DNA of 12,877 bases from Candidatus Iainarchaeum sp. (GCA_028700905.1 JAQVRT010000019.1:1-12877), one strand, 5' to 3'. Shown: positions 1-12,877, counted from the stretch's first letter. The notes: generated by a model not told the origin, from the letters alone. Program-made: numbers and translations.

Positions 1-814
1 TAGAAGGATTTTCTAAAAATTTTCTAGAAGATGCTATAAATAAACTTAATTGTTTTAAACTTACAGCAGATGCTACATTTCTAGTATCATCAATAGGATC
101 AATTACAACTAAGCTTTCAGAAAATCTTGCTAAATTAACATGTTGCTCTTTAAGTAAAGTAAATTTTATAGGATATTGCCAGTTTGAAGCGTTTTCTAAA
201 ACTGTTATAAAATCTCCATAAAATAAAATTAAAAGTTCACATAAATAACCAGAAAATCCAGAAACAGAAGTGTCAGCTCCATAAGCTCCTATTTGTTTTA
301 AAAAATATTTTAAAAGTCTAGTTTCATCTTTTTGTGTTTCAGACATGTTTTTTAAAACAAACATTAAATGTAAAACAGTTCTATCAACTGCAGAAATTAT
401 AGGTTCATTAGGTTCTATTTTATATGCAGGCACAACTTCAACTTTATGTCCGTCAATTACACCTCTTATATAAGGGTGTTGAGAATAAGCTTTTTCCCAA
501 AAATATCCTTTAAAAGCTTTTTGACCTAATAAAAGACCTTCTTCAATAAATTTTGTTTTTTCAAGAGAAGGAGGATAAATTACAAAAACATCAAAATCTT
601 TTGTATCTCTTAAATTAGTACCTTTTCCAAAAGAACCTGCACAAACAGCAGATAAATGTGGTCCAGGTAATTTTTCAATCTTTTTTATAACATTATCAAT
701 AAATCTTTTTTCTTTTATATTTTGAGAAGTACTAGGTTTTATTTGAGAAAGTAATTTCTTTCTAGTATCTCTATAAATTGATACTTTTGATTTATCAAGA
801 TTTATTGAAGACAT
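1..814 (-). CDS. cca: CCA-adding enzyme (archaeal class I tRNA nucleotidyltransferase), N-terminal part; the ORF runs off the left window edge
   Basis: Absent from the supplied track because it is open at the edge. Hand translation of the minus strand from the ATG (complement of 812-814) gives MSSINLDKSKVSIYRDTRKK...CAGSFGKGTNLRDTKDFDVFVIYP...SQHPYIRGVIDGHKVEVVPAYK...SAVDRTVLH...ETRLLKYFLKQIGAYGADTSVSGFSGYLCELLILFYGDF...VVIDPIDDTRNVASAVSLKQL, with no stop down to position 1. These blocks match, in order, the conserved blocks I recall from archaeal CCA enzymes: GS..R.T.L....D.DVF, EHPY, SAVDRTP.H, GFSGYLCELL and DP.D..RNVA. Confidence 0.85.
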   Translation of the reverse strand, partial: MSSINLDKSKVSIYRDTRKKLLSQIKPSTSQNIKEKRFIDNVIKKIEKLPGPHLSAVCAGSFGKGTNLRDTKDFDVFVIYPPSLEKTKFIEEGLLLGQKAFKGYFWEKAYSQHPYIRGVIDGHKVEVVPAYKIEPNEPIISAVDRTVLHLMFVLKNMSETQKDETRLLKYFLKQIGAYGADTSVSGFSGYLCELLILFYGDFITVLENASNWQYPIKFTLLKEQHVNLARFSESLVVIDPIDDTRNVASAVSLKQLSLFIASSRKFLENPS

Positions 815-876
815 AATAATAATTATAGAACATAAACAATATAAATTGTTTTATAAATTAATTTTAAAAAAAAAAT

Positions 877-1719
877 TTAGTTATTAATATCTTGTGAAAA
901 GTTATCATCGTTTAAAAAATCATCATCAGAAAAATTTTCATCAATTAAAATATTTTGATCATAAAAGTTTTCATCAACAATATTTTCAGTAACAATATTG
1001 TTATCAACTAAAGAATTTTTGTCATAATTACTTAGTTTATTTTGAATATCTGTTAAAGAACCTTCAATCATTTTAGCATCTTTATACATTTGATTAAAAG
1101 AGACATATAAAGAATCATAAACAAATTCTTTTGATTTAGGATTAATCAATAATAATTTTTCATTTAAATTTAAAATTACTTCTGATTGTAAAACATCTCC
1201 AAAAGGATAGTTAACCATAATTACAGAATTATTGGTATCTAAAAGAGATAAACATTCTTCACTTGTAAGTTCAACATTTTCTAAAACATTTCCATTATTT
1301 GATTGACAATAAAGAAGATTATTTTCATTATCAATTACAGAAATTAAAAGAACAGTATTTTTATTTTTTGCAGATAGCATTGATTGAGAAAATACAAGAC
1401 CATCAATTACAGAAGATAAATAATTTGAATCTTGATAATAGTAATTAAAGACTAATAAATAATTTTGATCAGTTCCAAATATTTCAAAACCTTCATGTAT
1501 ATGAAAATTAACTGACTTAAAATCAATATCATTACTTGAGAAAGAAGTTCTTGTTTCAACAACAATTTTACTTAATATCAATGCAATTAATATTGCAACA
1601 ATTATAATTAATATCAATTTAACAATTAATTTATTTCTTCTTTTAATAGAAGATTTTTTTTTAATTTCTTTAACAGTTTGTGTTTTTGCAGAAACTAATG
1701 CTTGAGCCATTTTAATCAC
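877..1719 (-). CDS. Hypothetical single-pass membrane protein with an acidic Asp/Asn/Phe-rich C-terminal tail
   Basis: 280-aa ORF. It has a basic N-terminus (KKKSSIKRRNK) followed by one strongly hydrophobic helix (LIVKLILIIIVAILIALILSKIVV). I recognise no family in the remainder. It lies 3 nt from the upstream gene (1723-2217), suggesting co-transcription. Confidence 0.6.
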   Translation of the reverse strand: MIKMAQALVSAKTQTVKEIKKKSSIKRRNKLIVKLILIIIVAILIALILSKIVVETRTSFSSNDIDFKSVNFHIHEGFEIFGTDQNYLLVFNYYYQDSNYLSSVIDGLVFSQSMLSAKNKNTVLLISVIDNENNLLYCQSNNGNVLENVELTSEECLSLLDTNNSVIMVNYPFGDVLQSEVILNLNEKLLLINPKSKEFVYDSLYVSFNQMYKDAKMIEGSLTDIQNKLSNYDKNSLVDNNIVTENIVDENFYDQNILIDENFSDDDFLNDDNFSQDINN

Positions 1720-1722
1720 ATT

Positions 1723-2217
1723 TTATAATTTTAAATATTTATTTATTTTTTTTAAATTTAATTTAAGATCTTTTGAAACCTCTATAGGCACATAATCTAT
1801 TTTTTTAGAATTTAATTTTTCTTGAAAATAATTAGTTTTATGACAAAATATATTTTCTTCAATTTTTAAAACAGGATAGTTTCTTTCAGCCATTCTATCT
1901 CTTAAAGATTTTTCAGAAGATAATAAAAGAAAAACAAAATCCATTTTTTTTAAAAAAAGTTTAGAAACTTCACAAAATAAATGACCTTCAAAAATAATAT
2001 TTTTTTTCTTTTTTAAAAGATCAAGACATTTTTTTGAAAGAAGAGATGTATCAATTTCATAATCTTTTGTTTCTTCATTTAAGATCGCAATATTATTTTC
2101 TTTAGAAAAATCTTTATCATTAACAACTAAAAACTTTTGAAAAGGAAATTTTTTTTTAACTTCTTGTGCAAGTGTTGTTTTACCACTTGCAACAGAACCT
2201 GTAATTACAAAATACAT
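1723..2217 (-). CDS. P-loop NTPase, Fap7/AK6-type putative adenylate kinase
   Basis: 164 aa. An N-terminal Walker A motif (ITGSVASGKTT) sits directly after the start. The size and layout are typical of the small archaeal Fap7-like kinases. Assignment below the P-loop kinase level is tentative. Confidence 0.55.
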   Translation of the reverse strand: MYFVITGSVASGKTTLAQEVKKKFPFQKFLVVNDKDFSKENNIAILNEETKDYEIDTSLLSKKCLDLLKKKKNIIFEGHLFCEVSKLFLKKMDFVFLLLSSEKSLRDRMAERNYPVLKIEENIFCHKTNYFQEKLNSKKIDYVPIEVSKDLKLNLKKINKYLKL

Positions 2218-2223
2218 AATACC

Positions 2224-4116
2224 TTACCTTAATCTAACACTCTCTAAATTTTGAATTGAAAGTGTATTAATGTGGAATTTCTTTGCAACAAATCTTGCAA
2301 ACTCAGGACAAGAATCACCGTGATTTACTAAAATTGTTTTTGGTTTAGGATTTAAACTTGTAACATAATTTAATAATTCTTGACGATAAGCGTGCCCTGA
2401 AAAAGCATCAATAGTTTCAATTCTAAGATTAACATTTAATGTTTTTGTTTTTCCTTTAGAATCATTAATTATCATTGATTTTAAACCTTTTTGCACCTTT
2501 TGTCCTAAACTATTTCTTGCTTGATATCCTACAAAAACTAAAGAATTATTTGGATTATCTGCAAGTTCATTAAAATATGCAACTGAAGGACCACCTGTAA
2601 GCATTCCTGAAGATGCAATAATAATTGAACCAGGAGAATTTAAAACATTTTCTCTAGAATTTTCTTCATAATCTACAGATTTAAAAAGTTTTGAAGAAAA
2701 TGGAGAATTATTTTGTAAAACTCTAGTTTTAATATTCATTTTTAAATACTCAGGATAAACAGTGTGTATTAAAGAAGCTTCTCTTGTCATACCATCTATA
2801 AAAACATTTTCCGCTTTTAATTTACCACGTCTAAAATATTCTTCTAAAACAATCATTACTTCTTGAGCACGACCAACTGAGAAAACAGGAATTAAAGCAA
2901 TTCCTCCTTTATCATAAGTTTCATTTAAAACTTCTATTAAATGATCTTCAGATTTATTTCTAGAAGGATTTAATGGTTTTCCACCATAAGTACTTTCTAA
3001 AATTAAAGTATCAACTCTTGGATAATTTGCATCCATGTTATTATATAATCTTGTAAAACCATATTTAATATCTGCAGAATAAACTAAATTATGTTTTCCA
3101 TCACCTATATGTAGGTGTGCAGAAGCAGATCCTAAAATATGTGCAGAATTATGGAAAGTAAGTCTTATTCCAGGAGCAATATCTGTAACTTCTCTAAAGT
3201 TTTTAGTTATACAGTGTTTAATAACCTCTTTAACATCTTCTTCACCATAAAGAGCCTCTCTACCTGTTTTTTCAGAAACAGAAATTGCATCTAAAAGTAA
3301 AAGAGCCATAATATCTTTTGTAGGCTCTGTACAATATACAGGACCTCTATAACCTGCTCTAAAAAGATAAGGTAAGAAACCTACGTGATCTATGTGAGCA
3401 TGTGTTATTACAACTGCATCAAGTTCATCTAAAGGAAATCTTATAACACCAAAGAAAGGTGCTTCTTCATTTTTATCAGCTGGATTAATTCCACAATCTA
3501 AAAGTATTTTTGTATCAGGAGTTTCTAAAAGTATAGCACTTCTTCCAACTTCTCTAAAACCACCAAGAGCTGTCATTCTAACCCATTCTTTATTACTTAC
3601 AGGAGGAGAATATATTTTTTTTGCAACTTCTTTTAGAAATTGTTTTCTTTCAGTATTATTTTTAATTGCATACCCTCTTATTTTTTTAATAATTTCAGAA
3701 GGTTCAAGTGGTGCTCTTAATATTTTTGGAATCCATTTTGTTTCTTTAATAATTGCTTTTGAAACATCCCCTTGTTTTCCAATAACAACACCAGGCTTAT
3801 CTGCTTCAATTACAACCTCTGAAAAAACTCCATCAAAAGCAATTGACTTTATTCCAGCATCTTCTGGAATTATTTCTTTAATTTTATTGTAGGCTTCAGC
3901 TGAATCCATTAAAGATGATTTTTCAGTTCTTATATTAATTCTTTTTTTAAATTTGTCAGCAATTTCACCAACAATTGTTTTATTACTAAAAAAAGAATAA
4001 GGGTCATTTGTATAGATAGCAATCTCTGAAGCTTCAGGTTCTATCTTTGAAAACGACATATTTTTCTCATTTAAGAGAGTAGAAATTTGTTTTTTAATAT
4101 TATCGAATAAGTCCAT
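2224..4116 (-). CDS. fttA: aCPSF1 / FttA: KH-domain, metallo-beta-lactamase, beta-CASP ribonuclease (archaeal transcription termination and RNA processing factor)
   Basis: 630 aa. The N-terminal KH region has a GxxG motif (VVIGKQGDV). It is followed by the metallo-beta-lactamase signature ITHAHIDHVG and a beta-CASP-type C-terminal half (ESTYGG..., FSGHA, VNHGD). The length and domain order are those of archaeal CPSF1. Confidence 0.9.
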   Translation of the reverse strand: MDLFDNIKKQISTLLNEKNMSFSKIEPEASEIAIYTNDPYSFFSNKTIVGEIADKFKKRINIRTEKSSLMDSAEAYNKIKEIIPEDAGIKSIAFDGVFSEVVIEADKPGVVIGKQGDVSKAIIKETKWIPKILRAPLEPSEIIKKIRGYAIKNNTERKQFLKEVAKKIYSPPVSNKEWVRMTALGGFREVGRSAILLETPDTKILLDCGINPADKNEEAPFFGVIRFPLDELDAVVITHAHIDHVGFLPYLFRAGYRGPVYCTEPTKDIMALLLLDAISVSEKTGREALYGEEDVKEVIKHCITKNFREVTDIAPGIRLTFHNSAHILGSASAHLHIGDGKHNLVYSADIKYGFTRLYNNMDANYPRVDTLILESTYGGKPLNPSRNKSEDHLIEVLNETYDKGGIALIPVFSVGRAQEVMIVLEEYFRRGKLKAENVFIDGMTREASLIHTVYPEYLKMNIKTRVLQNNSPFSSKLFKSVDYEENSRENVLNSPGSIIIASSGMLTGGPSVAYFNELADNPNNSLVFVGYQARNSLGQKVQKGLKSMIINDSKGKTKTLNVNLRIETIDAFSGHAYRQELLNYVTSLNPKPKTILVNHGDSCPEFARFVAKKFHINTLSIQNLESVRLR

Positions 4117-4266
4117 ATTTGTTCACATTGTTTTTAAAAAAGTATAAATATCATATATTTAATTGTATAATTTAGATTAATTTTCTTTATTGTTTATTTA
4201 AAATAAAAATAAAGATTATAAAGTATAAAAAATTTTAAAGTAATTTTAAAAAAAATAAAAAAAGAA

Positions 4267-4872
4267 CTATTTATATTTTTCAATAGGTAGTTCTTCAATA
4301 CCATCTTTTTTAATAATTACAACTTTTATTCCGTCTCCGCCAGTATAAACATCTCTTTTCTTAGCAGAAGTTATAGCGTCTTTTGCAAGTTCAATAGTAT
4401 CTTTAATAGAAATATTATTTTTATAGCCTTTATCAAGCGCACTTAAAGCAAGTTCTGAACCTGAACCTGAGAATGAAAAATTATCTTCTTTTGAAAATCC
4501 TCCAAGCATATCTAAAGAATAAAGCTCTTGATCAGCTCCTGCAACAATTAATTGAGAATAAAATGGAAGCATTTTACTAGAATTTAAAATATTTGATAAA
4601 AGGGTTACACATGATTTTGTACTTAATGGCCTTTTATGTTCAAGTTCATAAAGGTTAGCGTGATTTTGAAGATATCTAATTAAAACCATAGCATCCCCTA
4701 CAGAACCTGCAATTGTCATTGCAATAGAATCATTAATTTTGTAAATTTTAGTAGTATTATTATTAACTGCTAAATTACCCATTGTAGCTTGCATATCAGC
4801 TGCTAAAACAATACCATCTTTTGCAACAATACCAACTGTTGTTGTACCTGTTTTTAATGTTTTATCATTCAA
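4267..4872 (-). CDS. psmB: Proteasome subunit beta (20S)
   Basis: 201 aa. A short propeptide is followed by the processing and active-site motif KTG/TTTVGIV. The typical Ntn-hydrolase blocks GSVGDA and GSGS are present. Confidence 0.9.
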   Translation of the reverse strand: MNDKTLKTGTTTVGIVAKDGIVLAADMQATMGNLAVNNNTTKIYKINDSIAMTIAGSVGDAMVLIRYLQNHANLYELEHKRPLSTKSCVTLLSNILNSSKMLPFYSQLIVAGADQELYSLDMLGGFSKEDNFSFSGSGSELALSALDKGYKNNISIKDTIELAKDAITSAKKRDVYTGGDGIKVVIIKKDGIEELPIEKYK

Positions 4873-4878
4873 AATAAT

Positions 4879-5556
4879 TCACCCTTTTTTTTTAGTTAAT
4901 TTTTGAACAAACTTAACATTTTCATAATTTGTTGAATCAAAAACTAATTTTGCAAAAAATTGTTTAAAATAATCAATTTCTTGAGGAACCCCTAAAGGCA
5001 TCTCAACTTCAATATCATTTTCTTTTGAAATTAAATTAATTTGTTCTTTTGGCATAAAATAAAATGCCTTCTCTAAAAGTAAAGGAAGTTTATCAGAATC
5101 TTTAGAAATAACTTTATTTATTGTTACAGTATATTCTAAATCTCTTCCAGCATAAATAGGATTAAAATCAACTTTAACTCTTCCACCAGAAACAGAAATT
5201 ATTTTACCTGATCTATTTCCAATATTTACAAATAAACCAACTTCTGGTCTTACATTTTCTTTTTTAAATTCATTTAAAGAAACTAATTCTATTTTTTTAG
5301 GATCTTTATCTTTGAAAGCTTGTTCTTTTTTTAAAATAAATGTTTTTGTTTTAGAAACTTCTAAATCAGAAATATTATCTTCAATACCTTTTAAAAGTTC
5401 TCCAGTACCAAAAACATAATTTAAAGGCTTATATTCATTTTTTAAATTTAAATTATTTTCTTTTGCAATTTCTTTTTTTGTAGTATCTAAAATTTCATTA
5501 GTATTTGCATCTTTTAAAATTAGATCAATTTCAATAATATCTTTTGTCTTTATCAT
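4879..5556 (-). CDS. FKBP-type peptidyl-prolyl cis-trans isomerase (long archaeal SlyD-like type with insert-in-flap region and C-terminal extension)
   Basis: 225 aa. It carries the FKBP blocks FGTGELLKGIEDNISDL and VDFNPIYAGRDLEYTVTINKV (compare the VDFNHPLAGK motif of SlyD and archaeal FKBPs). It lies 6 nt upstream of psmB on the same strand. Confidence 0.8.
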   Translation of the reverse strand: MIKTKDIIEIDLILKDANTNEILDTTKKEIAKENNLNLKNEYKPLNYVFGTGELLKGIEDNISDLEVSKTKTFILKKEQAFKDKDPKKIELVSLNEFKKENVRPEVGLFVNIGNRSGKIISVSGGRVKVDFNPIYAGRDLEYTVTINKVISKDSDKLPLLLEKAFYFMPKEQINLISKENDIEVEMPLGVPQEIDYFKQFFAKLVFDSTNYENVKFVQKLTKKKG

Positions 5557-5815
5557 GTTAATTAACCTCTTGTCTTCTAATCATAGAAACTAAAAATCAA
5601 TAACCTATCTATTACTGTTTTTAAATAATTAAAACAGCCGAATAAAAATAGGAAATTTATAAAAGTAGATTTTTTATATAATATAATTATGAACCGAATT
5701 GCTTAAAAAGATTTGTTTTTATGTAGTAATTACCAATAAAAGTAAATTATTTATAAAATTTTAAAATATTAAAGAAATTATAAAAACTCTTTAAAAAAAT
5801 ATAATTTTTTATAAA

Positions 5816-5867
5816 TTGGCACCAACAATGCCAAAAAAAGATAAATTATTGGCACTAGCAGTGCTAA
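5816..5867. repeat. Two adjacent small hairpins sharing the direct repeat ATTGGCAC, downstream of the RT stop
   Basis: Hairpin 1 is TTGGCA (5816-5821), loop CCAACAA, TGCCAA (5829-5834): 6 perfect bp. Hairpin 2 is TTGGCAC (5849-5855), loop TAGCA, GTGCTAA (5861-5867): 7 bp including one G-T pair on the plus strand. Both are preceded by ATAAATT, and ATTGGCAC recurs at 5815 and 5848 (33-nt spacing). They are the only G/C-containing islands in a 356-nt ORF-free spacer. Confidence 0.5.
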
Positions 5868-5912
5868 GTAAACCCAAATAATATTTTTAAAGTTAAATTA
5901 AAAATAAAGATA

Positions 5913-6923
5913 TTATTTAATATTTAAAATATTTAAAAGCCTATAACAATTTGCATGCTTTGCATAACCTAAAAAAGAAAAAAGAGAAGACCTGAAGTTA
6001 AGTAAAGGCATTTTCTTTTGTTTTAGTAAATAATTATTTTTATTTTGTCTTTTTACAAATCTTTTAATGTTTGATTTTCTTAATCGTACAAAAGAGGAAA
6101 ATACCTTATACCCTAAAAAGTCAACACCTTTAGAAGTTAGGTTTGTATAACTTTTATTTTTAGGAACTGCTAAAAACAAATCTTTTTTTAGAAATAATTT
6201 TATTTTTCTTCTAAAAACCTTTAAATCTCTTTTAGAATCAGAAAATATTAAAAAATCATCAACATACCTATAATAATGTTTAATTTTTAAAGTATGCTTA
6301 ACAAATTGATCTAATTGATTTAGATAAATATTTGCAAACAATTGAGAAGTTAAATTTCCAATTGGGATTCCTTTTTTATTGTTTAAAGAAGAAAAAGAAT
6401 AACTATCTATTATTTGATAGATTATAGATAATAGTTTTTTATCTTTAATTTTTTTATAAATTATACTTTTTAAAACATCTTTATCTATTGAAGGAAAATA
6501 TTTCTTAACATCTTGTTTTAAATAATATTTTGGAGGGTTTTTTGATTGAACTAATTTTTTAATTTCTAAAAAACCTTTAAAAGTGCCTTTTCCTTTTCTA
6601 CATGCAAAAGAGTTGTTTATAAAAGATTTATCAAAGATAGGTTCAATGATGTTTATAATTGCATGTTGAACAACAACATCTCTAAAACAAGGGGCACTAA
6701 TTATTCTTTCTTTAGGTTCATATACCTTAAAGTTTCTGTATTCTGAAAAAGTATATTCTTGGTTTATTAACTCTTCTTGTATTAAAAAAAGTTCTTTTTC
6801 AAGATTGGTTGTAAACTTTAGAATATATTTTTTATTAGGGTTTGATTTTCTTGCTTTTTTATAGGCATTAAAAATATTTTTAAAAGAAGTGAATTCTTGC
6901 CAAAGGTTATTGTATGATTTCAT
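5913..6923 (-). CDS. Reverse transcriptase, diversity-generating retroelement (DGR) clade
   Basis: 336 aa with RT motifs in order. They are YRNFKVYEPKERIISAPCFRDVVVQHAI (motifs 1/2), ACRKGKGTFKG, KQDVKKYFPSIDKDVL (motif 3), GIPIGNLTSQLFANIYLNQLD (motif 4), YRYVDDFLIF (motif 5, YVDD catalytic box), VDFLGYKV (motif 7), then LRKSNIKRFVKRQ and a C-terminal SFLGYAKHANCYRL. The [ILV]GxxxSQ form of motif 4 is the DGR hallmark. The block-by-block resemblance to Bordetella phage BPP-1 Brt, as I recall it, also favours DGR over retron or group II intron RTs. There is no maturase/X or endonuclease domain. Confidence 0.85.
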   Translation of the reverse strand: MKSYNNLWQEFTSFKNIFNAYKKARKSNPNKKYILKFTTNLEKELFLIQEELINQEYTFSEYRNFKVYEPKERIISAPCFRDVVVQHAIINIIEPIFDKSFINNSFACRKGKGTFKGFLEIKKLVQSKNPPKYYLKQDVKKYFPSIDKDVLKSIIYKKIKDKKLLSIIYQIIDSYSFSSLNNKKGIPIGNLTSQLFANIYLNQLDQFVKHTLKIKHYYRYVDDFLIFSDSKRDLKVFRRKIKLFLKKDLFLAVPKNKSYTNLTSKGVDFLGYKVFSSFVRLRKSNIKRFVKRQNKNNYLLKQKKMPLLNFRSSLFSFLGYAKHANCYRLLNILNIK

Positions 6924-7157
6924 TTTTAAAAAGCCTTATTTAAAGTTAAGAGTTATTACAGATTTCTTTTTACATACTATAAAAATACTAAATGTAATAA
7001 CTTATCTTTATATTTGATTTTTTAACATAAAAACAAAATAGTTTTTATGGCACACATTATGTGCAATCAAGAAACATTTTACAGATGTAGTTTTTTAAAA
7101 TATTCGCTTTATATGTTTTTTTAAAACAAAAAAATAAACATACAAACTCTGATAAAA

Positions 7158-7180
7158 CCTCATTATTAAAAATAATAAGG
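7158..7180 (-). other. Stem-loop 5 nt downstream of the target-gene stop codon (candidate DGR VR-flanking hairpin and/or transcript terminator)
   Basis: Arms 7158-7167 and 7171-7180, loop 7168-7170. In minus-strand sense it reads CCTTATTATT-TTT-AATAATGAGG: 10 bp with one U-G wobble. It is followed in that sense by TTTT (complement of 7154-7157). Confidence 0.45.
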
Positions 7181-7185
7181 AGAAA

Positions 7186-8595
7186 CTACTTGACACAGCG
7201 CAGGCCGATGCGGCGGTCCCGGGAACCAGGAGTGTCGAGCAAGGTCAGGCTCAAGACCCCAGCATCAGTGCCATGGCCCCAGTGACCACCGCGCAGAAAC
7301 GCGTATTCAGCAGTAGAAGTGTCTCCAACATCACTATAAGTATAAATTCTACCAACACCATTATCTGTTGCATTATAAGTATTACTTGTAAGTAAAAATA
7401 AATCTTTATACTTTAAAGTGGTATTACCTAAATTATCAGAAGAAATATATTGGTTTTCTCCACCACCTTTGGAATAATCAAAATAATTAAAACCAGTAAT
7501 AAAGTTACTATCATCGGCATTATTAAAACCATCAGGTTGATCTTTTCTTTGTATTGTGTCACTTGTCCATTGTCTTACATTACCGGCTAAATCCCAAATA
7601 ACTTCACCATTAGTTAAAGTTAAGGTTCTTCTTTGACTCCCTGAGCTTTGGCCAGTTCCTGCATAACCATTTGTATCAATTGAAGCTTCTAAAGCTCCTC
7701 CTGGTGTTCCATCGTTATGTCCTGAATAAATATATCCCTGACCAACAGTTCCAGAAGACCAGTTAGATGGAACTTGTTCTATGTTTCGTACAATAGTCAT
7801 CCATTCATTGTTTGTTATTAAATGACCACCTATAGCTTCACAAGCAGCAATAGCTTCGGTTTGGGAAATTCTTGTAACAGGAGAGCCTTCAGGAGTTGAT
7901 ACTAATGTACCAGGAGTAGGGCATAATTCATAACTATAAGTATTATAGGTTAAAGAACCGGTATTACAATCAGGATAATCTGCTACAAGATTTCCTTTAC
8001 CATCTCCATTAACATCCATTTTCATCTCATATTTTGAAACACAAAAACCACCATTTTCATTCATAGTTCCATATAAATGATTACCAGGAACAGGAATGTA
8101 ACCTTCTGGACAAGAAGAAGGTTGTTTTATGGTTTGTAAAATATTATTCTTAGTGATCATTCTGTCATTATCAAGATAAAAAACAATATTTAAATTGTCT
8201 TCTAAAATACCATGGTCAATTACGGCAGATTGGTTTGCAGTTATTGTGATTGGAGGGTCTATAGGGTTAATATTAGTATTACCAAACAAACTATAACCAG
8301 TTATGGTTAGAGAAGTGTGAGGAGAACCATAAGGAGGTTTATATTCTAAAATGGTACGACCATTTATTGAGGTTTTTAAATGTAAATAAAAAGAAGTTTC
8401 TGATTCAGTGAAAATCTCAAGACCAGAGGCTTTGGAAAGAGAATCATTGGTAAAACCTTTTCCCCAAGAAATAATTATACCAATTATAGCAACAGCAACA
8501 ACAACTAAAAGAATAGTGGCTATAAGAGGACTTATAGCTTTTCTTTTTTTAAAAAAAGTTATAAAATAATTACCTTTAATCATAATAATCTGCAT
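7186..8595 (-). CDS. DGR target (variable) protein: archaeal type IV pilin-like N-terminus plus C-terminal FGE-sulfatase (SUMF1) / C-type-lectin-fold domain
   Basis: 469 aa. The N-terminus, KKRKAISPLIATILLVVVAVAIIGIIIS, matches the archaeal class III signal and Pilin_N pattern ([KR]-A-[IV]-S-P-[VIL]-I-x-x-[IVL]-L). From about residue 160 it shows FGE-sulfatase blocks: CPEGYIPVPG, GFCVSKYEM, ISQTEAIAACEAIGGHLITNNEWMTIVRN, GNVRQWTSD and a terminal LRGGHWG...RIGLRCVK. It lies directly upstream of the DGR-type RT on the same strand. The start is ambiguous between M1 (8595) and M5 (8583). Confidence 0.8.
   Translation of the reverse strand: MQIIMIKGNYFITFFKKRKAISPLIATILLVVVAVAIIGIIISWGKGFTNDSLSKASGLEIFTESETSFYLHLKTSINGRTILEYKPPYGSPHTSLTITGYSLFGNTNINPIDPPITITANQSAVIDHGILEDNLNIVFYLDNDRMITKNNILQTIKQPSSCPEGYIPVPGNHLYGTMNENGGFCVSKYEMKMDVNGDGKGNLVADYPDCNTGSLTYNTYSYELCPTPGTLVSTPEGSPVTRISQTEAIAACEAIGGHLITNNEWMTIVRNIEQVPSNWSSGTVGQGYIYSGHNDGTPGGALEASIDTNGYAGTGQSSGSQRRTLTLTNGEVIWDLAGNVRQWTSDTIQRKDQPDGFNNADDSNFITGFNYFDYSKGGGENQYISSDNLGNTTLKYKDLFLLTSNTYNATDNGVGRIYTYSDVGDTSTAEYAFLRGGHWGHGTDAGVLSLTLLDTPGSRDRRIGLRCVK
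7189..7326 (-). other. Putative DGR variable region (VR) including a GC-rich IMH-like 3' end: the last 46 codons of the target gene
   Basis: Hand count gives 81 of 130 nt G+C (62%) for 7191-7320, against 13/60 in 7131-7190 and 19/60 in 7321-7380. Coding-strand adenine is only 16/130. There are no AAY codons, and the codons around the invariant Trp are all NNY (CAC TGG GGC CAT GGC ACT GAT GCT). The island maps exactly onto the ligand-facing C-terminal segment (RGGxW...G[FL]RC) that is the VR in CLec-fold DGR targets. Confidence 0.7.
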
Positions 8596-8708
8596 ATATA
8601 CCTATATAAAAATATATTTAAATATAAGAACAATATATTTATAAAGATAATTAAAAGAGATAAATAGTTTAAAAAATAATAAATTTTAAATTAAATAAAG
8701 AAAAAAGA

Positions 8709-8924
8709 TTATTTTGTTTTTTTAACAAAATAATCAATATCTTTTCCAATACTTGAAAAATCAACCTTAACATTATTTACAGCCATTTTATCTAAGAAAT
8801 CTTTATAAGATATACCTGCAATATCTGCAGCCTCTGATAAAGACAGGCTTTTATTTTCATAAGCCTTAAAAACAATAGCAAGCCTAGATTCATCTATATT
8901 AGAAGTAATATTTGTTTTACTCAT
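8709..8924 (-). CDS. UPF0175-family-like small helix-turn-helix protein (antitoxin-like)
   Basis: 71 aa. LAIVFKAYENKSLSLSEAADIAGISYKDFLDKMAVNNVKV resembles the UPF0175 pattern (...Y..G.lSlg.AAelaGms...F...L...gi). No PIN or other toxin ORF is adjacent. Confidence 0.5.
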   Translation of the reverse strand: MSKTNITSNIDESRLAIVFKAYENKSLSLSEAADIAGISYKDFLDKMAVNNVKVDFSSIGKDIDYFVKKTK

Positions 8925-9032
8925 AAATATATTGTAAACATAACCTTTTTAAAACATTATTTTTACAACCAAAAAGAAGTATTATATTATCTTCTCTACA
9001 GTAATATATAAAAAAGAAAAAGAAAAACAAAC

Positions 9033-11165
9033 ATGCTATCAAAAGAAGAAATTATTCAAAAAATATTAGACATTAACAAATACGAAAAATTAAATCCTAT
9101 GCAAAACTTAGCAAAAGAACATATAGGAACAAACACACTTATCACAACACCAACTGCATCTGGTAAAACAACAGTCTTTGAAATGTATATGCTTGATTGT
9201 TTATTAAACAAAAAAAAGAAAGCAATTTACATCTCTCCTTTAAAAGCATTAACAACTGAACATTACTTAGAAACTAAAAGAAAATTTTCAAAAGAATTTA
9301 ACCTAAAAGTAGGCCTTTCAACTGGAGATTTAGATTCAAGTAATAAATATTTAGAACAATATGATGTTTTATTTTTAACATATGAAAAATTTGATTCAAT
9401 TCTAAGACATCAACCTTCATGGTTAAAAAATGTTGGACTTTTAACAATTGATGAAATTCATGAGCTTGGATCAAATAGAGGCTCAACCTTAGAAGTTATA
9501 ATTACACAACTAAAACATAGTTATAAAGAAATTACTCTTCTAGGTTTATCTGCAACAATAAAAAACTCAAAAGAAATATCTGATTGGCTTTCTGCAAAAC
9601 TAGTTTTAAGTAATTATAGACCTGTACCTTTAGAAACTGGTGTTTTTTATAATGACAATATATATTTTGAAGATAGAAAAGAAGATTTAACTTCTCTTGC
9701 TGTTAAAAATATTAATTTAGGATCAATAATTAAAGATACCTTAAATAAAGAAAAACAAATAATTGTATTTTGTGCATCTAGAAAAAATGCAATGTCATTT
9801 GCAAAAAAATATGGAAAAATAATATCAAGCCACATTACTCCTGAAGAATATAAAAAATTAAGAGAAGTTTCAAAAGAAGCTCTTGAAGCTTTAGAGAATC
9901 CTACAAAACAATGTGAAGAACTTTCTCTTTCTCTTTTAATGGGTTCAGCATTTCATCATGCAGGACTTGTATATAAACAAAGAGAGGTTGTTGAAGAAAA
10001 TTTTAAGAGAGGAAATATTAAAGCAATCTTTGCAACACCTACTCTTGCTGCAGGAATAAATCTTCCAGCATATAGAGTAGTTATTAATAGTGTGTTTAGA
10101 TTTTCAGAAGGTTCAATGGTTCCAATACCAGTAAATGAATTTCAACAAATGGCAGGAAGAGCTGGAAGACCTAAATATGATAAAAAAGGAGAAGCTATTT
10201 GTGTTGTAAATAAAGAAGGAGATATTCCAAAGATATATAACACATATATTGTATCAGGTCCCTCAAACATAGATTCTCAACTTTCTAAAATTAATATTTT
10301 AAGAGGACATTTACTTTCTATGATTCTTGTAAATGAAATAAAGAGTATTGAAGATTTAATTAATTATTTATCAAAAACATTTTACTATTTTACATATGGA
10401 GATAATCACGAAATTAGAAAAAACATACAAGAAATTGCACACGAATTCTACGAATATGGTTTTTTAGAAAAAAAAGAAAATGGTTTTCTAATAACCCCAC
10501 TAGGTAAGAAAGTATGTTATCTTTATATAGATCCATTATCTGCAAATAGTATTCTTAAAGATTTAGAAATTAAAAAGAATAAAGAAACAAAAATAATAGA
10601 TAAAATATTTACAGTTTCAAACACAACAGAAATGTATCCTTATTTAAAATACAAACAAGAAAAAGAAAATACTCTTTTTACAACTTTTGAAGAACTTAGA
10701 CAAAATATTTTCTTTGATTATGAAGATATTTATCTTTTACAAAAAATTTATTTAACAAAACTTATAGCAGACTGGATTGAAGAAAAAGAAGAAAACTATA
10801 TAATTGACGAATATAACACAACACCTGGACAGATTAGAGATTTAATTTCAAAAGCAGAATGGATCTGTCATTCTACAATAGAGCTTTTAAAACACACACA
10901 AGCAAGCATAATATCAATCAAAGAATACTCAAATCTTTTATTAAGAATTAAGTATGGTATAAAACAAGAATTAGTCTCATTAGTTGAACTTAAAAATATA
11001 GGAAGAGTTAGAGCAAGAAGATTATTTAATAATGGAATAAAAAGTGTTAATGATATAAAAAATAATCCAGATAAATTTATTAATTTAATTGGAAAATTTG
11101 GACTTGAGACTTTAAAAGAATTAAAAATAGATTACAAAGAAAAAACAATAAATGAAAAAATCTAA
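9033..11165 (+). CDS. hel308: Ski2-like ATP-dependent DNA helicase Hel308
   Basis: 710 aa. Superfamily 2 motifs are present: motif I TPTASGKT, motif II DEIH, motif III SAT and motif VI QMAGRAGRP. The C-terminal helix-hairpin-helix-like segment (IGRVRARRLFNNGIKSVNDI) is typical of domain 5 of archaeal Hel308/Hjm. Confidence 0.88.
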   Translation: MLSKEEIIQKILDINKYEKLNPMQNLAKEHIGTNTLITTPTASGKTTVFEMYMLDCLLNKKKKAIYISPLKALTTEHYLETKRKFSKEFNLKVGLSTGDLDSSNKYLEQYDVLFLTYEKFDSILRHQPSWLKNVGLLTIDEIHELGSNRGSTLEVIITQLKHSYKEITLLGLSATIKNSKEISDWLSAKLVLSNYRPVPLETGVFYNDNIYFEDRKEDLTSLAVKNINLGSIIKDTLNKEKQIIVFCASRKNAMSFAKKYGKIISSHITPEEYKKLREVSKEALEALENPTKQCEELSLSLLMGSAFHHAGLVYKQREVVEENFKRGNIKAIFATPTLAAGINLPAYRVVINSVFRFSEGSMVPIPVNEFQQMAGRAGRPKYDKKGEAICVVNKEGDIPKIYNTYIVSGPSNIDSQLSKINILRGHLLSMILVNEIKSIEDLINYLSKTFYYFTYGDNHEIRKNIQEIAHEFYEYGFLEKKENGFLITPLGKKVCYLYIDPLSANSILKDLEIKKNKETKIIDKIFTVSNTTEMYPYLKYKQEKENTLFTTFEELRQNIFFDYEDIYLLQKIYLTKLIADWIEEKEENYIIDEYNTTPGQIRDLISKAEWICHSTIELLKHTQASIISIKEYSNLLLRIKYGIKQELVSLVELKNIGRVRARRLFNNGIKSVNDIKNNPDKFINLIGKFGLETLKELKIDYKEKTINEKI

Positions 11166-11195
11166 AATAAGATTTTTCCATTTCAACTAATTAAA

Positions 11196-11480
11196 TTATT
11201 TTTTCTTTTTTAATGGTTTTTTTGCATTTGAAACAATTTTGTCTGCAAGTTCACTTGTTTTTTCAGAAAAAACTGAAAGTCTCATAGTAACCCATACAAC
11301 AATAATAGTTACAATTATAGCATATAAAAACATTGCAATAATTGTTCCTGCACTTCCAAAAATTGAAGTAAATAATGCTTTAATAGCATCATTCCATGCA
11401 AGAGCTGCAACAAGACCAAAAGCACTTGTCATCAAAACATTTATTCTTTCAATAACTTCTTTTTTCATATTTTTATTCAT
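11196..11480 (-). CDS. Small membrane protein, two predicted TM helices, lysine-rich C-terminal tail
   Basis: 94 aa. It has two hydrophobic segments (VLMTSAFGLVAALAWNDAI and TIIAMFLYAIIVTIIVVWVTM) and a basic tail ending in KKPLKKKK. It is preferred over the overlapping antisense ORF 11239-11493 because of its helix pattern and its sensible start context. Confidence 0.6.
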   Translation of the reverse strand: MNKNMKKEVIERINVLMTSAFGLVAALAWNDAIKALFTSIFGSAGTIIAMFLYAIIVTIIVVWVTMRLSVFSEKTSELADKIVSNAKKPLKKKK

Positions 11481-11505
11481 CTCCTTTTTTTAAAAAATAG
11501 AAAAA

Positions 11506-12765
11506 TTAACCAATATTTTCTTTTTTAATAAGCTCTCTTATTAAAACTGTAGCATATTGCCCTTTATCTAATACAAAAGAGATTGTGGCCTTCATTTGTC
11601 CAATATTCAAATTATCTTCTTCTATAGAAATTAACTTTAATTCTTTTGGAAAAGTTATAACTGGCCTAAAATCTCCTTTACAAGAAAGAACAGAATAATC
11701 TTTATTAAAAAAATGTCTAAAATCAATTCCTTCTCTTTTAAAAATTTCTTTTTCAATTTCTCCTGCCCTACCATCTAAAAATTTAGAATCATAACCAAAT
11801 AAAGGTAAATGTAAAACCCCATTTATTACATAATCACCATCTAATGGTTTTAAAAATAAACCTTTGTCAATCCTATAATTAATAATTTCATTAAATAAAT
11901 AAGATTGATAAGCATGAATAAATAAATATTGCATAGATTTTGAAAGAGATTTAAAAGCTCCTAAATAATCTTCAGGATTATTTGCTAAATGATTTAAAAT
12001 AGGAACTTCAAAACCAGATTTAGATGGAAAAGAAGAAGCCCATTTTTTAAAATCATTTGTTTTTAAAATATCTTCTCTAGCATTTTTTAAATCTTGATCT
12101 TCATAAGGAGAAGGAGAAGTTAAGTATAACATAATTGCTTTTTTATATTCTTTTAATATTAAATGTTTGCCAACCTTAGCAGTAACTTCCCTTGCTCCAC
12201 CAAATCTTTGTTCGCCGAAATAATTAATTAATCCTTTTTGATTTATTTCAAGAAAATTTGTTTCAATAATTTCTTTTATTTCTTCTTTTGATAATCCTTC
12301 TATTTGTCTAATAGTTATAATAAATCTATTTTCTTTTAAATCACCAATATCTATTTTTTTAAAAGACCAAAAAGGGTTATATGTTTTAATATCTTTAAAA
12401 TAAAATTTTGAAAGTCTTTCCAATTCAGGATTATAAAGAGAAATTTTTTGAGAAGAAATAGATCTTTTATCTTTTAAGCCAGCATAACCAAATCTATACT
12501 TTGAAAGTCTTAAAAATCTTGACATTTGAGAAATTGCTTGCATAGTTGAAAGGTTATGTTTTTCCATATCAAGAATTAAATGATCTTTTCCTTCTTCTTT
12601 ATTTTCAAATATTTTTTCCCAATCAATAGTTTCTATTTTTTTATCAGGTAAGTATTTTACAGAAGTTTCATAATCTAAACCAATTTCCTCAACAATAAAG
12701 TCTTGTGGAAGTTGTTTTATTCTTCCACCTAAACCTTTTGTATCTGTAACATATCTATAATCCAT
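11506..12765 (-). CDS. truD: tRNA pseudouridine synthase TruD/Pus7 family
   Basis: 419 aa. It carries the N-terminal GGRIKQLPQDFIVEE and the catalytic-Asp block FGYAGLKDKRSISSQ (TruD signature G.KD..A.T.Q). It also has NYFGEQRFG and a C-terminal TRUD-type region. Confidence 0.88.
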   Translation of the reverse strand: MDYRYVTDTKGLGGRIKQLPQDFIVEEIGLDYETSVKYLPDKKIETIDWEKIFENKEEGKDHLILDMEKHNLSTMQAISQMSRFLRLSKYRFGYAGLKDKRSISSQKISLYNPELERLSKFYFKDIKTYNPFWSFKKIDIGDLKENRFIITIRQIEGLSKEEIKEIIETNFLEINQKGLINYFGEQRFGGAREVTAKVGKHLILKEYKKAIMLYLTSPSPYEDQDLKNAREDILKTNDFKKWASSFPSKSGFEVPILNHLANNPEDYLGAFKSLSKSMQYLFIHAYQSYLFNEIINYRIDKGLFLKPLDGDYVINGVLHLPLFGYDSKFLDGRAGEIEKEIFKREGIDFRHFFNKDYSVLSCKGDFRPVITFPKELKLISIEEDNLNIGQMKATISFVLDKGQYATVLIRELIKKENIG

Positions 12766-12768
12766 AAT

Positions 12769-12877
12769 TTAAAGTTCCTTTACATATATTGGAAGCATAT
12801 TTTTATCCATATTAATTACAACTTCTTTTTTCAAAGATTTATTTTCTAAAACTAAACAAGGAGTTAAACCATAATTT
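12769..12877 (-). CDS. 3' end of an unidentified protein-coding gene that enters from the right window edge
   Basis: Hand translation of the minus strand gives ...NYGLTPCLVLENKSLKKEVVINMDKNMLPIYVKEL, ending at TAA (complement of 12769-12771), 3 nt before the truD ATG. Only 35 residues are visible, too short for a family call. Confidence 0.4.
   Translation of the reverse strand, partial: NYGLTPCLVLENKSLKKEVVINMDKNMLPIYVKEL

Follow-up and report, generated by a model that had tools for sequence, protein, structure and literature searches.

The DGR in the window, by which we mean the whole 12,877-nt stretch of DNA analysed here, appears from its sequence to be a canonical archaeal DGR of Forterrea type in truncated form. 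The contig (G+C ~23%), taken whole from an NCBI MAG, belongs to a Forterrea-like DPANN archaeon and carries archaeal housekeeping genes for aCPSF1/FttA, a proteasome beta subunit, FKBP26, a Hel308-type helicase and TruD, together with a truncated DGR cassette from which the template repeat (TR) and Avd are absent. On the minus strand, a 469-aa target gene (8595..7186) is followed by a 262-nt spacer (7185..6924) and the gene for a 336-aa DGR-type reverse transcriptase (RT; MDD4049834.1, 6923..5913). The target gene ends in the surviving repeat (7186..7298, minus strand), a hybrid with a VR-type body and a TR-type 3' flank. The preliminary description of this DNA had correctly placed the interval 6924-7185 between the target stop codon (7188-7186) and the RT start (6923), and had read it as an empty slot for a TR and an accessory gene. 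TR and Avd are indeed missing, but the slot has not been vacated: its 262 nt are a normal TR-to-RT spacer.

The C-terminal domain of the target is FGE-sulfatase/C-type-lectin-like (Pfam PF03781, E 3.2e-9, residues 234-360) and ends in the VR, with a C-terminus that reads ...FLRGGHWGHGTDAGVL...RIGLRCVK; the N-terminus is type IV pilin-like (NCBIfam archaellin/pilin N-terminal domain). The profile match assigns the variable protein to the C-type-lectin / FGE-sulfatase-like fold. The RT matches RVT_1 (E 1.8e-22), contains the motifs I-G-x-x-x-S-Q (as IGNLTSQ) and YVDD, has no frameshift and shows a dN/dS of 0.14 against the RTs of two relatives, L001 and L003, in line with the earlier statement that the ORF is intact. 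Homologues with 96-68% identity adjoin bAvd genes and TR/VR pairs, and by these sequence features the enzyme is placed in the DGR clade; the profile libraries used contain no DGR-specific RT model, and the NCBIfam matches of the RT lie below their cut-offs. A group II intron RT/maturase model reaches 143 bits against a cut-off of 300, and the retron and Drt models score far below theirs. As no such profile exceeds its cut-off and 5500-7500 contains no intron or retron RNA recognised by Rfam, we rejected a group II intron, retron or defence RT identity.

We scanned both strands of the 12,877-nt contig for a TR by sliding the 113-nt VR along them and tolerating mismatches only at adenines of the candidate template, and the scan returned the VR itself only. 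At the next-best site, 26 of the 113 nt are non-adenine mismatches, compared to a background of 25-27 in the controls. The same scan recovers the TR in both positive controls, with 1 non-A and 12 A-site mismatches in the complete Forterrea genome (L006) and with 0 non-A and 16 A-site mismatches in L001. An antisense scan, a scan in 40-nt windows and blastn-short of the VR against the window gave nothing above chance. It is therefore extremely improbable that a very A-rich, gapped or opposite-strand TR is present in the window and was overlooked. No data support one, and A-rich stretches yield chance "A-site mismatches"; against it stand a best non-self site at background level, a scan that succeeds in two controls, and the empty antisense and blastn-short searches. 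The preliminary description, which had looked for a TR by eye, had proposed checking its absence by blastn and an A-mismatch-tolerant alignment over the contig, and these alignments find no TR that it missed. The contig lacks an Avd-sized ORF, no ORF in the window matches an Avd family in Pfam, and the spacer (6924-7185, G+C ~21%) contains no ORF longer than 42 aa, which bears out the description of it as AT-rich, ORF-free and lacking an accessory gene.

Three relatives with orthologous targets have a full cassette at this locus, between UPF0175 and FKBP26: L001 (NPID01000561.1, a 236-kb contig that encodes the closest homologue of the RT, at 96% identity), L003 (a Logan contig with the same cassette layout) and L006 (CP045477.1, the complete genome of Ca. 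Forterrea multitransposorum, of which L008 is an independent assembly). The intact layout is target with VR, ~300 nt with conserved elements, ORF128, Avd, TR, a spacer of 262-277 nt and RT. In L001, where the neighbouring genes are those of the window (TruD, Hel308, UPF0175 ... FKBP26, proteasome, FttA), the target with its VR lies at 7128-8522, the 128-aa ORF at 8806-9192, Avd at 9192-9533, the AAC-rich TR at about 9604-9724 and the RT at 10001-11011, with a 277-nt spacer between TR and RT. The Avd between target and TR in the relatives is a bAvd (PF22296). Within each intact cassette, VR and TR are distinguished by changes at 11-20 adenine sites and 0-1 other sites, and L006 and L008, two assemblies of one genome, have different VRs; together these observations indicate that the intact elements are active.

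Every intact cassette of the Forterrea-type DGRs has a conserved 128-136-aa ORF directly 5' of avd (in addition to that of L001, at 6946-7332 in L003, 2499-2885 in L006, 9580-9990 in L012, 4814-5209 in L028 and 146-556 in L002). The encoded proteins have no significant Pfam match, apart from a match of the L002 homologue to 23S_rRNA_IVP, an Avd-like four-helix bundle, at an E of 3.5e-6 that is below the cut-off. The ORF128-type protein may be a second Avd-like accessory protein. The six intact VRs all have a conserved 3' flank, TTTTTGAAAA... and then GACGGGTGAGACGGCAAGACGG..., and the intact VR-side junction reads VR followed by TAGTTTTT(A)GAAAA...GACGGGTGAGACGG. A near-invariant GC-rich triple direct repeat, GACGGGTGAGACGGCAAGACGGCAAGACGG, occurs 3' of every intact VR, both in the cassette at this locus (DGR-1) and in a paralogous cassette (DGR-2), and is not found in the window. 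It lies ~45 nt past each VR stop codon within AT-rich intergenic DNA (L001 8563-8595, and equivalent sites in L003, L006, L007, L012 and L028), and beyond it there is a conserved palindrome, GCAAATTTTTTT...AAAAAAATTTGC. Possible roles for the triple repeat and palindrome are target recognition or a promoter/operator for ORF128-avd.

When the window is aligned to L001, it matches on either side of a gap, and 7183-7299 matches both the VR (8405-8525) and the TR (9611-9727). The bases directly after the window stop codon, TAGTTTCTCCTTATTATTTTTAATAATGAGG..., are those that follow the TR in L006, so that the 3' flank of the window repeat is the TR flank TAGTTTCTCCTTATT... and not the VR flank TAGTTTTTGAAAA / TAGTTTTTAGAAA. 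The body of the repeat is that of a diversified VR. Compared to the Forterrea TR (L006 3308-3417), 17 of its 30 adenine sites are changed and every variable codon up to position 85 is altered, with three non-adenine differences (35 C>T, 62 T>C and 71 G>T), all at synonymous third positions. This adenine-site signature implies that a DGR produced the window VR. Adenine-site changes end at VR position 85 (window 7211) and the first base specific for the TR flank comes after TAGTTT, which places the join within the 28 nt at 7183-7210 (minus strand; CATCGGCCTGCGCTGTGTCAAGTAGTTT) over which VR and TR have identical 3' ends. A TR-type 3' flank on a VR body means that exactly one VR-to-TR unit is missing. 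This unit measures 1,225 nt in L006 (2196-3420) and 1,202 nt in L001, and the lost block comprises the conserved region downstream of the VR, ORF128, avd and the TR. At 2.7%, the three non-adenine differences match the 2.7% divergence of the adjacent spacer, and can be read as ordinary strain differences of the lost TR, a reading that does not require decay of a frozen VR.

VR and TR are direct repeats ~1.2 kb apart whose 3' ends share 28 identical bases. If recombination or slippage took place between these bases, one repeat unit would be removed together with the intervening DNA, and the hybrid repeat (VR body, TR 3' flank), the spacer and the RT would be left behind. Having lost the TR, the cis Avd and the VR-side 3' flank, the cassette could presumably no longer rewrite its target; the VR would be locked as it last stood, with RT and spacer RNA orphaned. 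The loss event is probably recent, since the RT is intact and shows purifying selection, the spacer shares 97% identity with that of Forterrea, and the repeat body (the last ~110 nt of the target) retains 65% G+C in a genome of ~23%. Decay of a kind that would independently show the cassette to be long dead is not seen. One option raised in the preliminary description, a locked VR whose TR was recently lost, thus fits the data provided that the contig is correct, as the syntenic relatives carry ORF128-Avd-TR at this place, the VR has a normal DGR signature against the Forterrea TR, and neither RT nor spacer has decayed. We also considered a cDNA-bridged deletion, and rejected it because L010, a second public contig with the same join, retains the existing VR variant of L001 and is itself a chimera. 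Handa and colleagues reportedly found in 2018 that the cDNA of the Bordetella phage begins at the TR 3' end and that the spacer is not copied. We found no published explicit description of VR/TR crossover as a route of DGR loss, which is nevertheless the expected outcome for 110-nt direct repeats.

On the basis of alignment and predicted folding, the 262-nt "slot" is a conserved, structured TR-to-RT spacer RNA that has been retained intact. It is 97.3% identical to L006 3418-3678, directly 3' of the TR, with 6 substitutions and 1 indel, and is unlike the sequence 3' of any VR. We aligned the spacers of eight distinct cassettes (window, L006, L001, three DGR-2 copies, L002 and L004). Eight helices with 62 pairs are predicted, and 13 of the 62 pairs show compensatory changes, counted among the same eight related spacers that define the structure. 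In the alignment, 96.7% of the cells are paired, compared to 36-56% in slid controls; the 13 of 62 pairs changed on both sides compare with 0-4 in slid controls, and none of 500 shuffles reaches either value. Helix 5 (7050..7064, minus strand) is the hairpin GCACA-CATTA-TGTGC noted in the preliminary description at that very position, and its proposed place in a spacer-type RNA structure is supported by covariation: GCACA/TGTGC in the window, L006, L002 and L004 becomes GCATA/TATGC in L001, L007, L011 and L016, the fourth pair being C-G in four sequences and U-A in the other four. In helix 7 (window 7002-6993 with 6960-6951), six pairs are changed in L002 and L004. Helix 1 (7087..7189, minus strand) joins the end of the repeat plus TTT to the spacer, GUAGUUU (7189-7183) pairing with an invariant AAACUAC (7093-7087) in the most conserved block, AAAAACUACAUCUGUAA. 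It encloses helices 2 and 3 and is predicted in all eight sequences; its pairs never vary, so that covariation speaks neither for nor against it. Only sub-threshold chance matches were obtained with Rfam for window 5500-7500, with no matching family. The folded spacer of the Bordetella phage recruits RT-Avd and supplies the priming adenosine (PMC12875486). By analogy, the archaeal spacer RNA may play the same priming role, and helix 1 may position the priming adenosine.

The DGR-1 locus is a presence/absence island. The flanks of the cassette, window 1-5788 and 8629-12877, align to strains without a DGR here (L029, L018 and L019), and the similarity ends at the island edges (5789..8628). In these three strains, a gene for a 416-aa AAA_14/DUF4143 ATPase lies between UPF0175 and FKBP26 and replaces the DGR. 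The ATPase gene takes the place of DGR-1 in many close strains (L018-L027 and L029-L034), among them the dominant strain of JGI samples 3300042275-8; several contigs end within it. The window is a mosaic. From the VR to ~6847, it is 95-100% L006-like, and the first 80 nt of the RT gene are 100% identical to L006; from ~6815, the RT is 97-100% L001-like, the RT body sharing 96-100% identity with L001 and L003. Across window 1-5788, identity to strains with no DGR at the locus is 98.5-99.2%, and 8629-12877 is ~90% identical to all known sequence. The nearest relative flips sharply at 6815-6847, inside the 5' region of the RT gene, with exact matches on both sides of the switch to Forterrea L006 (6974-6847, 128 nt) and to L001 (6815-6565, 251 nt). 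Judged by these matches, the switch is either a recombination breakpoint or a strain-chimeric join.

Smaller differences are seen elsewhere. Between TruD and a DUF5654 gene, L001 carries a 94-aa ORF together with a gene for a ParE-like toxin (3500-4181), both absent from the window (11495-11506), a small indel of toxin-antitoxin type. Past the RT stop and near the island edge at 5789, a very AT-rich 356-nt intergenic region contains two G+C-richer inverted repeats, TTGGCA-CCAACAA-TGCCAA and GCACT-AGC-AGTGC (window 5817-5869, plus strand), which may be terminator-like hairpins or boundary elements. The genome of Ca. Forterrea, which is known for transposon propagation, has a 421-aa ORF between RT and FKBP26 (L006 4839-6104) with no counterpart in the window, L001 or L003.

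The missing block could have been lost in the cell or during assembly. We put the chance that the window represents a real deletion allele in the strain at about even, slightly above that of an assembly collapse across the VR/TR repeat, which was absent from the options in the preliminary description and is a serious rival that we hold to be somewhat short of even. If the assembly collapsed, the cassette of the strain would be intact and the assembler would have gone from the VR through the shared 3' end into the TR flank, along the 28-nt run or a longer one in this strain, skipping a 1.2-kb loop too short for binning. A real deletion is favoured by a join internal to a 12.9-kb contig that extends for at least 5.7 kb on either side, and by the recombination-prone island at the DGR locus; homologous recombination is documented in the Forterrea lineage (PMC5905446). 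The exact run common to VR and TR is 28 nt only, shorter than the final k of common assemblers, so a false join would normally need supporting reads, and the paralogous cassette in the same bin seems to have been assembled correctly across its own VR/TR pair. On the other hand, de novo Forterrea assemblies left out inter-repeat blocks "in a variety of ways" (Probst and Banfield, PMC5905446), and two Logan contigs (L004 and L005) start precisely at the 3' end of the TR, where assemblers evidently stumble; position 1 of both is the last AAC codon of the TR (AACATCGGCTTGCGCTG...), 276 nt 5' of the RT. Further support for a collapse comes from the presence of two strains in the bin, with a contig that is mosaic (L006-like and L001-like), and from an RT, spacer and VR that all look fully functional by sequence. 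Hel308 appears to occur twice in the bin, at window 9033-11165 (MDD4049837.1) and as MDD4050153.1 on a 4,318-nt contig, the two being >90% identical; MDD4050153.1 is one residue from the protein of a DGR-less strain (P0177; strain J). Two versions of a single-copy gene imply that the MAG contains two strains.

The second public contig with the same join from VR to TR flank, L010 (NPIE01025101.1), is an assembly chimera and as such also speaks for a collapse. It came from a scan of metagenome contigs for the TR-to-spacer junction that returned four loci, none of them another assembly of the window strain. From 1 to ~1284, it is ~100% identical to the DGR-2 locus of a sister assembly (L028), and from ~1285 to 2391 it is 100% identical to the DGR-1 locus of L001, including the exact VR variant of L001; yet L010 jumps from the VR to the TR flank, whereas the same VR in L001 has its normal VR flank. 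Its 2391 nt thus consist of three parts, namely a DGR-2 5' part, the 3' part of the DGR-1 target with its VR, and the DGR-1 spacer with the 5' end of the RT, each ~100% identical to sister assembly GCA_015657875.1. The window itself is not chimeric with the DGR-2 locus, a possibility that we rejected because exact matches to any DGR-2 RT or spacer reach 35 nt at most. When the target protein was used as query in a homology search, its own entry was the only one above 84% identity, and hence there was no independent assembly of the window allele. Exact-protein look-ups with the RT, UPF0175 and the DGR-2 target likewise found no second assembly of the window strain in the collections searched. 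A scan of a genome-contig collection with the 3' end shared by VR and TR returned Ca. Forterrea only, in a collection that excludes the MAG of the window and the assembly of L001.

The preliminary description had also suggested that the TR might be remote, and the same bin does contain a paralogous cassette on a 3.4-kb contig, although its presumed TR leaves three non-adenine VR positions unexplained. This cassette (MDD4050208-211) comprises a partial RT, Avd (MDD4050209.1), a 131-aa ORF (ORF131, PHX47_04375) and a 453-aa target; target and partial RT are both on the 3,396-nt contig, flanking ORF131 and Avd, and the accessions are consecutive. It is the orthologue of DGR-2, intact copies of which are found in Forterrea (L007), L012 and L028, and it probably has a TR, judging from relatives with an identical Avd. 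Between the TRs of DGR-1 and DGR-2, 5 of 110 positions differ. In L008 (Ga0210034_1000002, minus strand; VR1 from 9829 of the reverse complement), the DGR-1 VR is in the DGR-2 TR state at positions 26, 35 and 48, which are all three internal sites that separate the two TRs (TR2 from L009/L007), and keeps the DGR-1 state at 104 and 105; the VR in L006 (CP045477.1), from the same genome, is DGR-1-templated. This pattern suggests that DGR-2 cDNA rewrote the DGR-1 VR in L008, with the transfer boundary before position 104.

The DGR-2 cassette in the bin, the closeness of the two TRs and the cross-templating seen in L008 would all be compatible with a working trans arrangement, in which the window VR is still diversified by the DGR-2 TR and Avd with or without its own RT. 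We nevertheless consider such an arrangement improbable. The VR rewritten in L008 has a normal flank, and the window VR lacks the VR-side 3' flank kept after all six intact VRs; as the corresponding VR-side elements of the Bordetella phage are important for homing (PMC12875486), the conserved flank is by analogy a putative recognition element. In addition, the window VR mismatches the DGR-2 TR at the non-adenine positions 48, 62 and 71, and the DGR-2 contig may derive from the second of the two strains in the bin. From the alignments, the VR now appears to occupy the former place of the TR, directly 5' of the spacer RNA and RT and inside the target transcript. With Avd from DGR-2, the 3' end of the target could then act as a template, giving a self-templating or donor-only DGR that would arise by a single recombination; the VR would donate to the VR of the other cassette or re-mutate its own remaining adenines. 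This is slightly less probable still. Iterative self-mutagenesis was rejected, as the adenine depletion of the VR (17 of 30) lies within the ordinary VR range of 11-20. For a non-canonical template arrangement, the last option in the preliminary description, we found nothing in support.

Set against known systems, the cassette read as a canonical DGR that has lost one VR-to-TR unit is closest to the Avd-TR-RT DGRs (BPP-1 type; Architecture B, Wu et al. 2018, PMC5758913). The two have in common a DGR-type RT, a VR at the C-terminus of a CLec/FGE-sulfatase-like target, adenine-specific differences between VR and TR (seen in the window against the orthologous TR) and a TR-RT spacer that is predicted to be structured, and the relatives of the window also keep the avd-TR-RT order. 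Unlike the BPP-1 type, the window itself is without TR, avd and VR 3' flank, and its relatives have an extra conserved ORF (128-136 aa) 5' of avd. In place of the defined stem-loop of BPP-1, the relatives have the GC-rich triple direct repeat 3' of the VR and then a weakly predicted stem-loop. VR and TR of the relatives are the same through the stop codon, which means that any IMH/IMH* distinction must lie in the flank. Cassettes of Ca. Forterrea multitransposorum (CP045477.1) and other DPANN (Diapherotrites/Iainarchaeia) lie at the same locus with the same gene order on both sides; what the window lacks relative to the Forterrea cassette L006 is one VR-to-TR unit (1,225 nt).

Pseudogulbenkiania sp. 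NH8B offers a further comparison: its DGR is duplicated, and a decayed copy relies on the other in trans (Schillinger et al. 2012, PMC3521204). As in NH8B, there are two paralogous cassettes, one of them incomplete, with near-identical TRs that make service in trans conceivable. In NH8B, however, it is the RT that has decayed, and the distal VRs match the remaining TR at all non-adenine positions, whereas in the window the RT is intact, the TR and Avd are missing, and the VR does not fully match the TR of the other cassette. Multiple DGRs in one genome have been reported, as has a DGR with two avd genes (PMC5758913). A TR, a cis Avd and a VR-side 3' flank, as a functional cassette has, are absent from the contig, and the window cassette is a degenerate member of the canonical Avd-TR-RT DGRs with a C-type-lectin-type target and not a new kind.

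A DGR RT that lacks a TR and stands beside a VR-bearing target does not call for an exotic mechanism: a single VR/TR crossover, made by the cell or by the assembler, suffices. A VR whose 3' flank is the TR flank is diagnostic of such a crossover, and this signature should be useful in genome annotation. If the deletion is real, the locus would be a clean natural case of a DGR being switched off, with a variable protein frozen in one step. Of more lasting value are the predicted, covarying structure of an archaeal DGR spacer RNA, the evidence of cross-templating between the paralogous cassettes of Forterrea and the conserved elements downstream of the VR.
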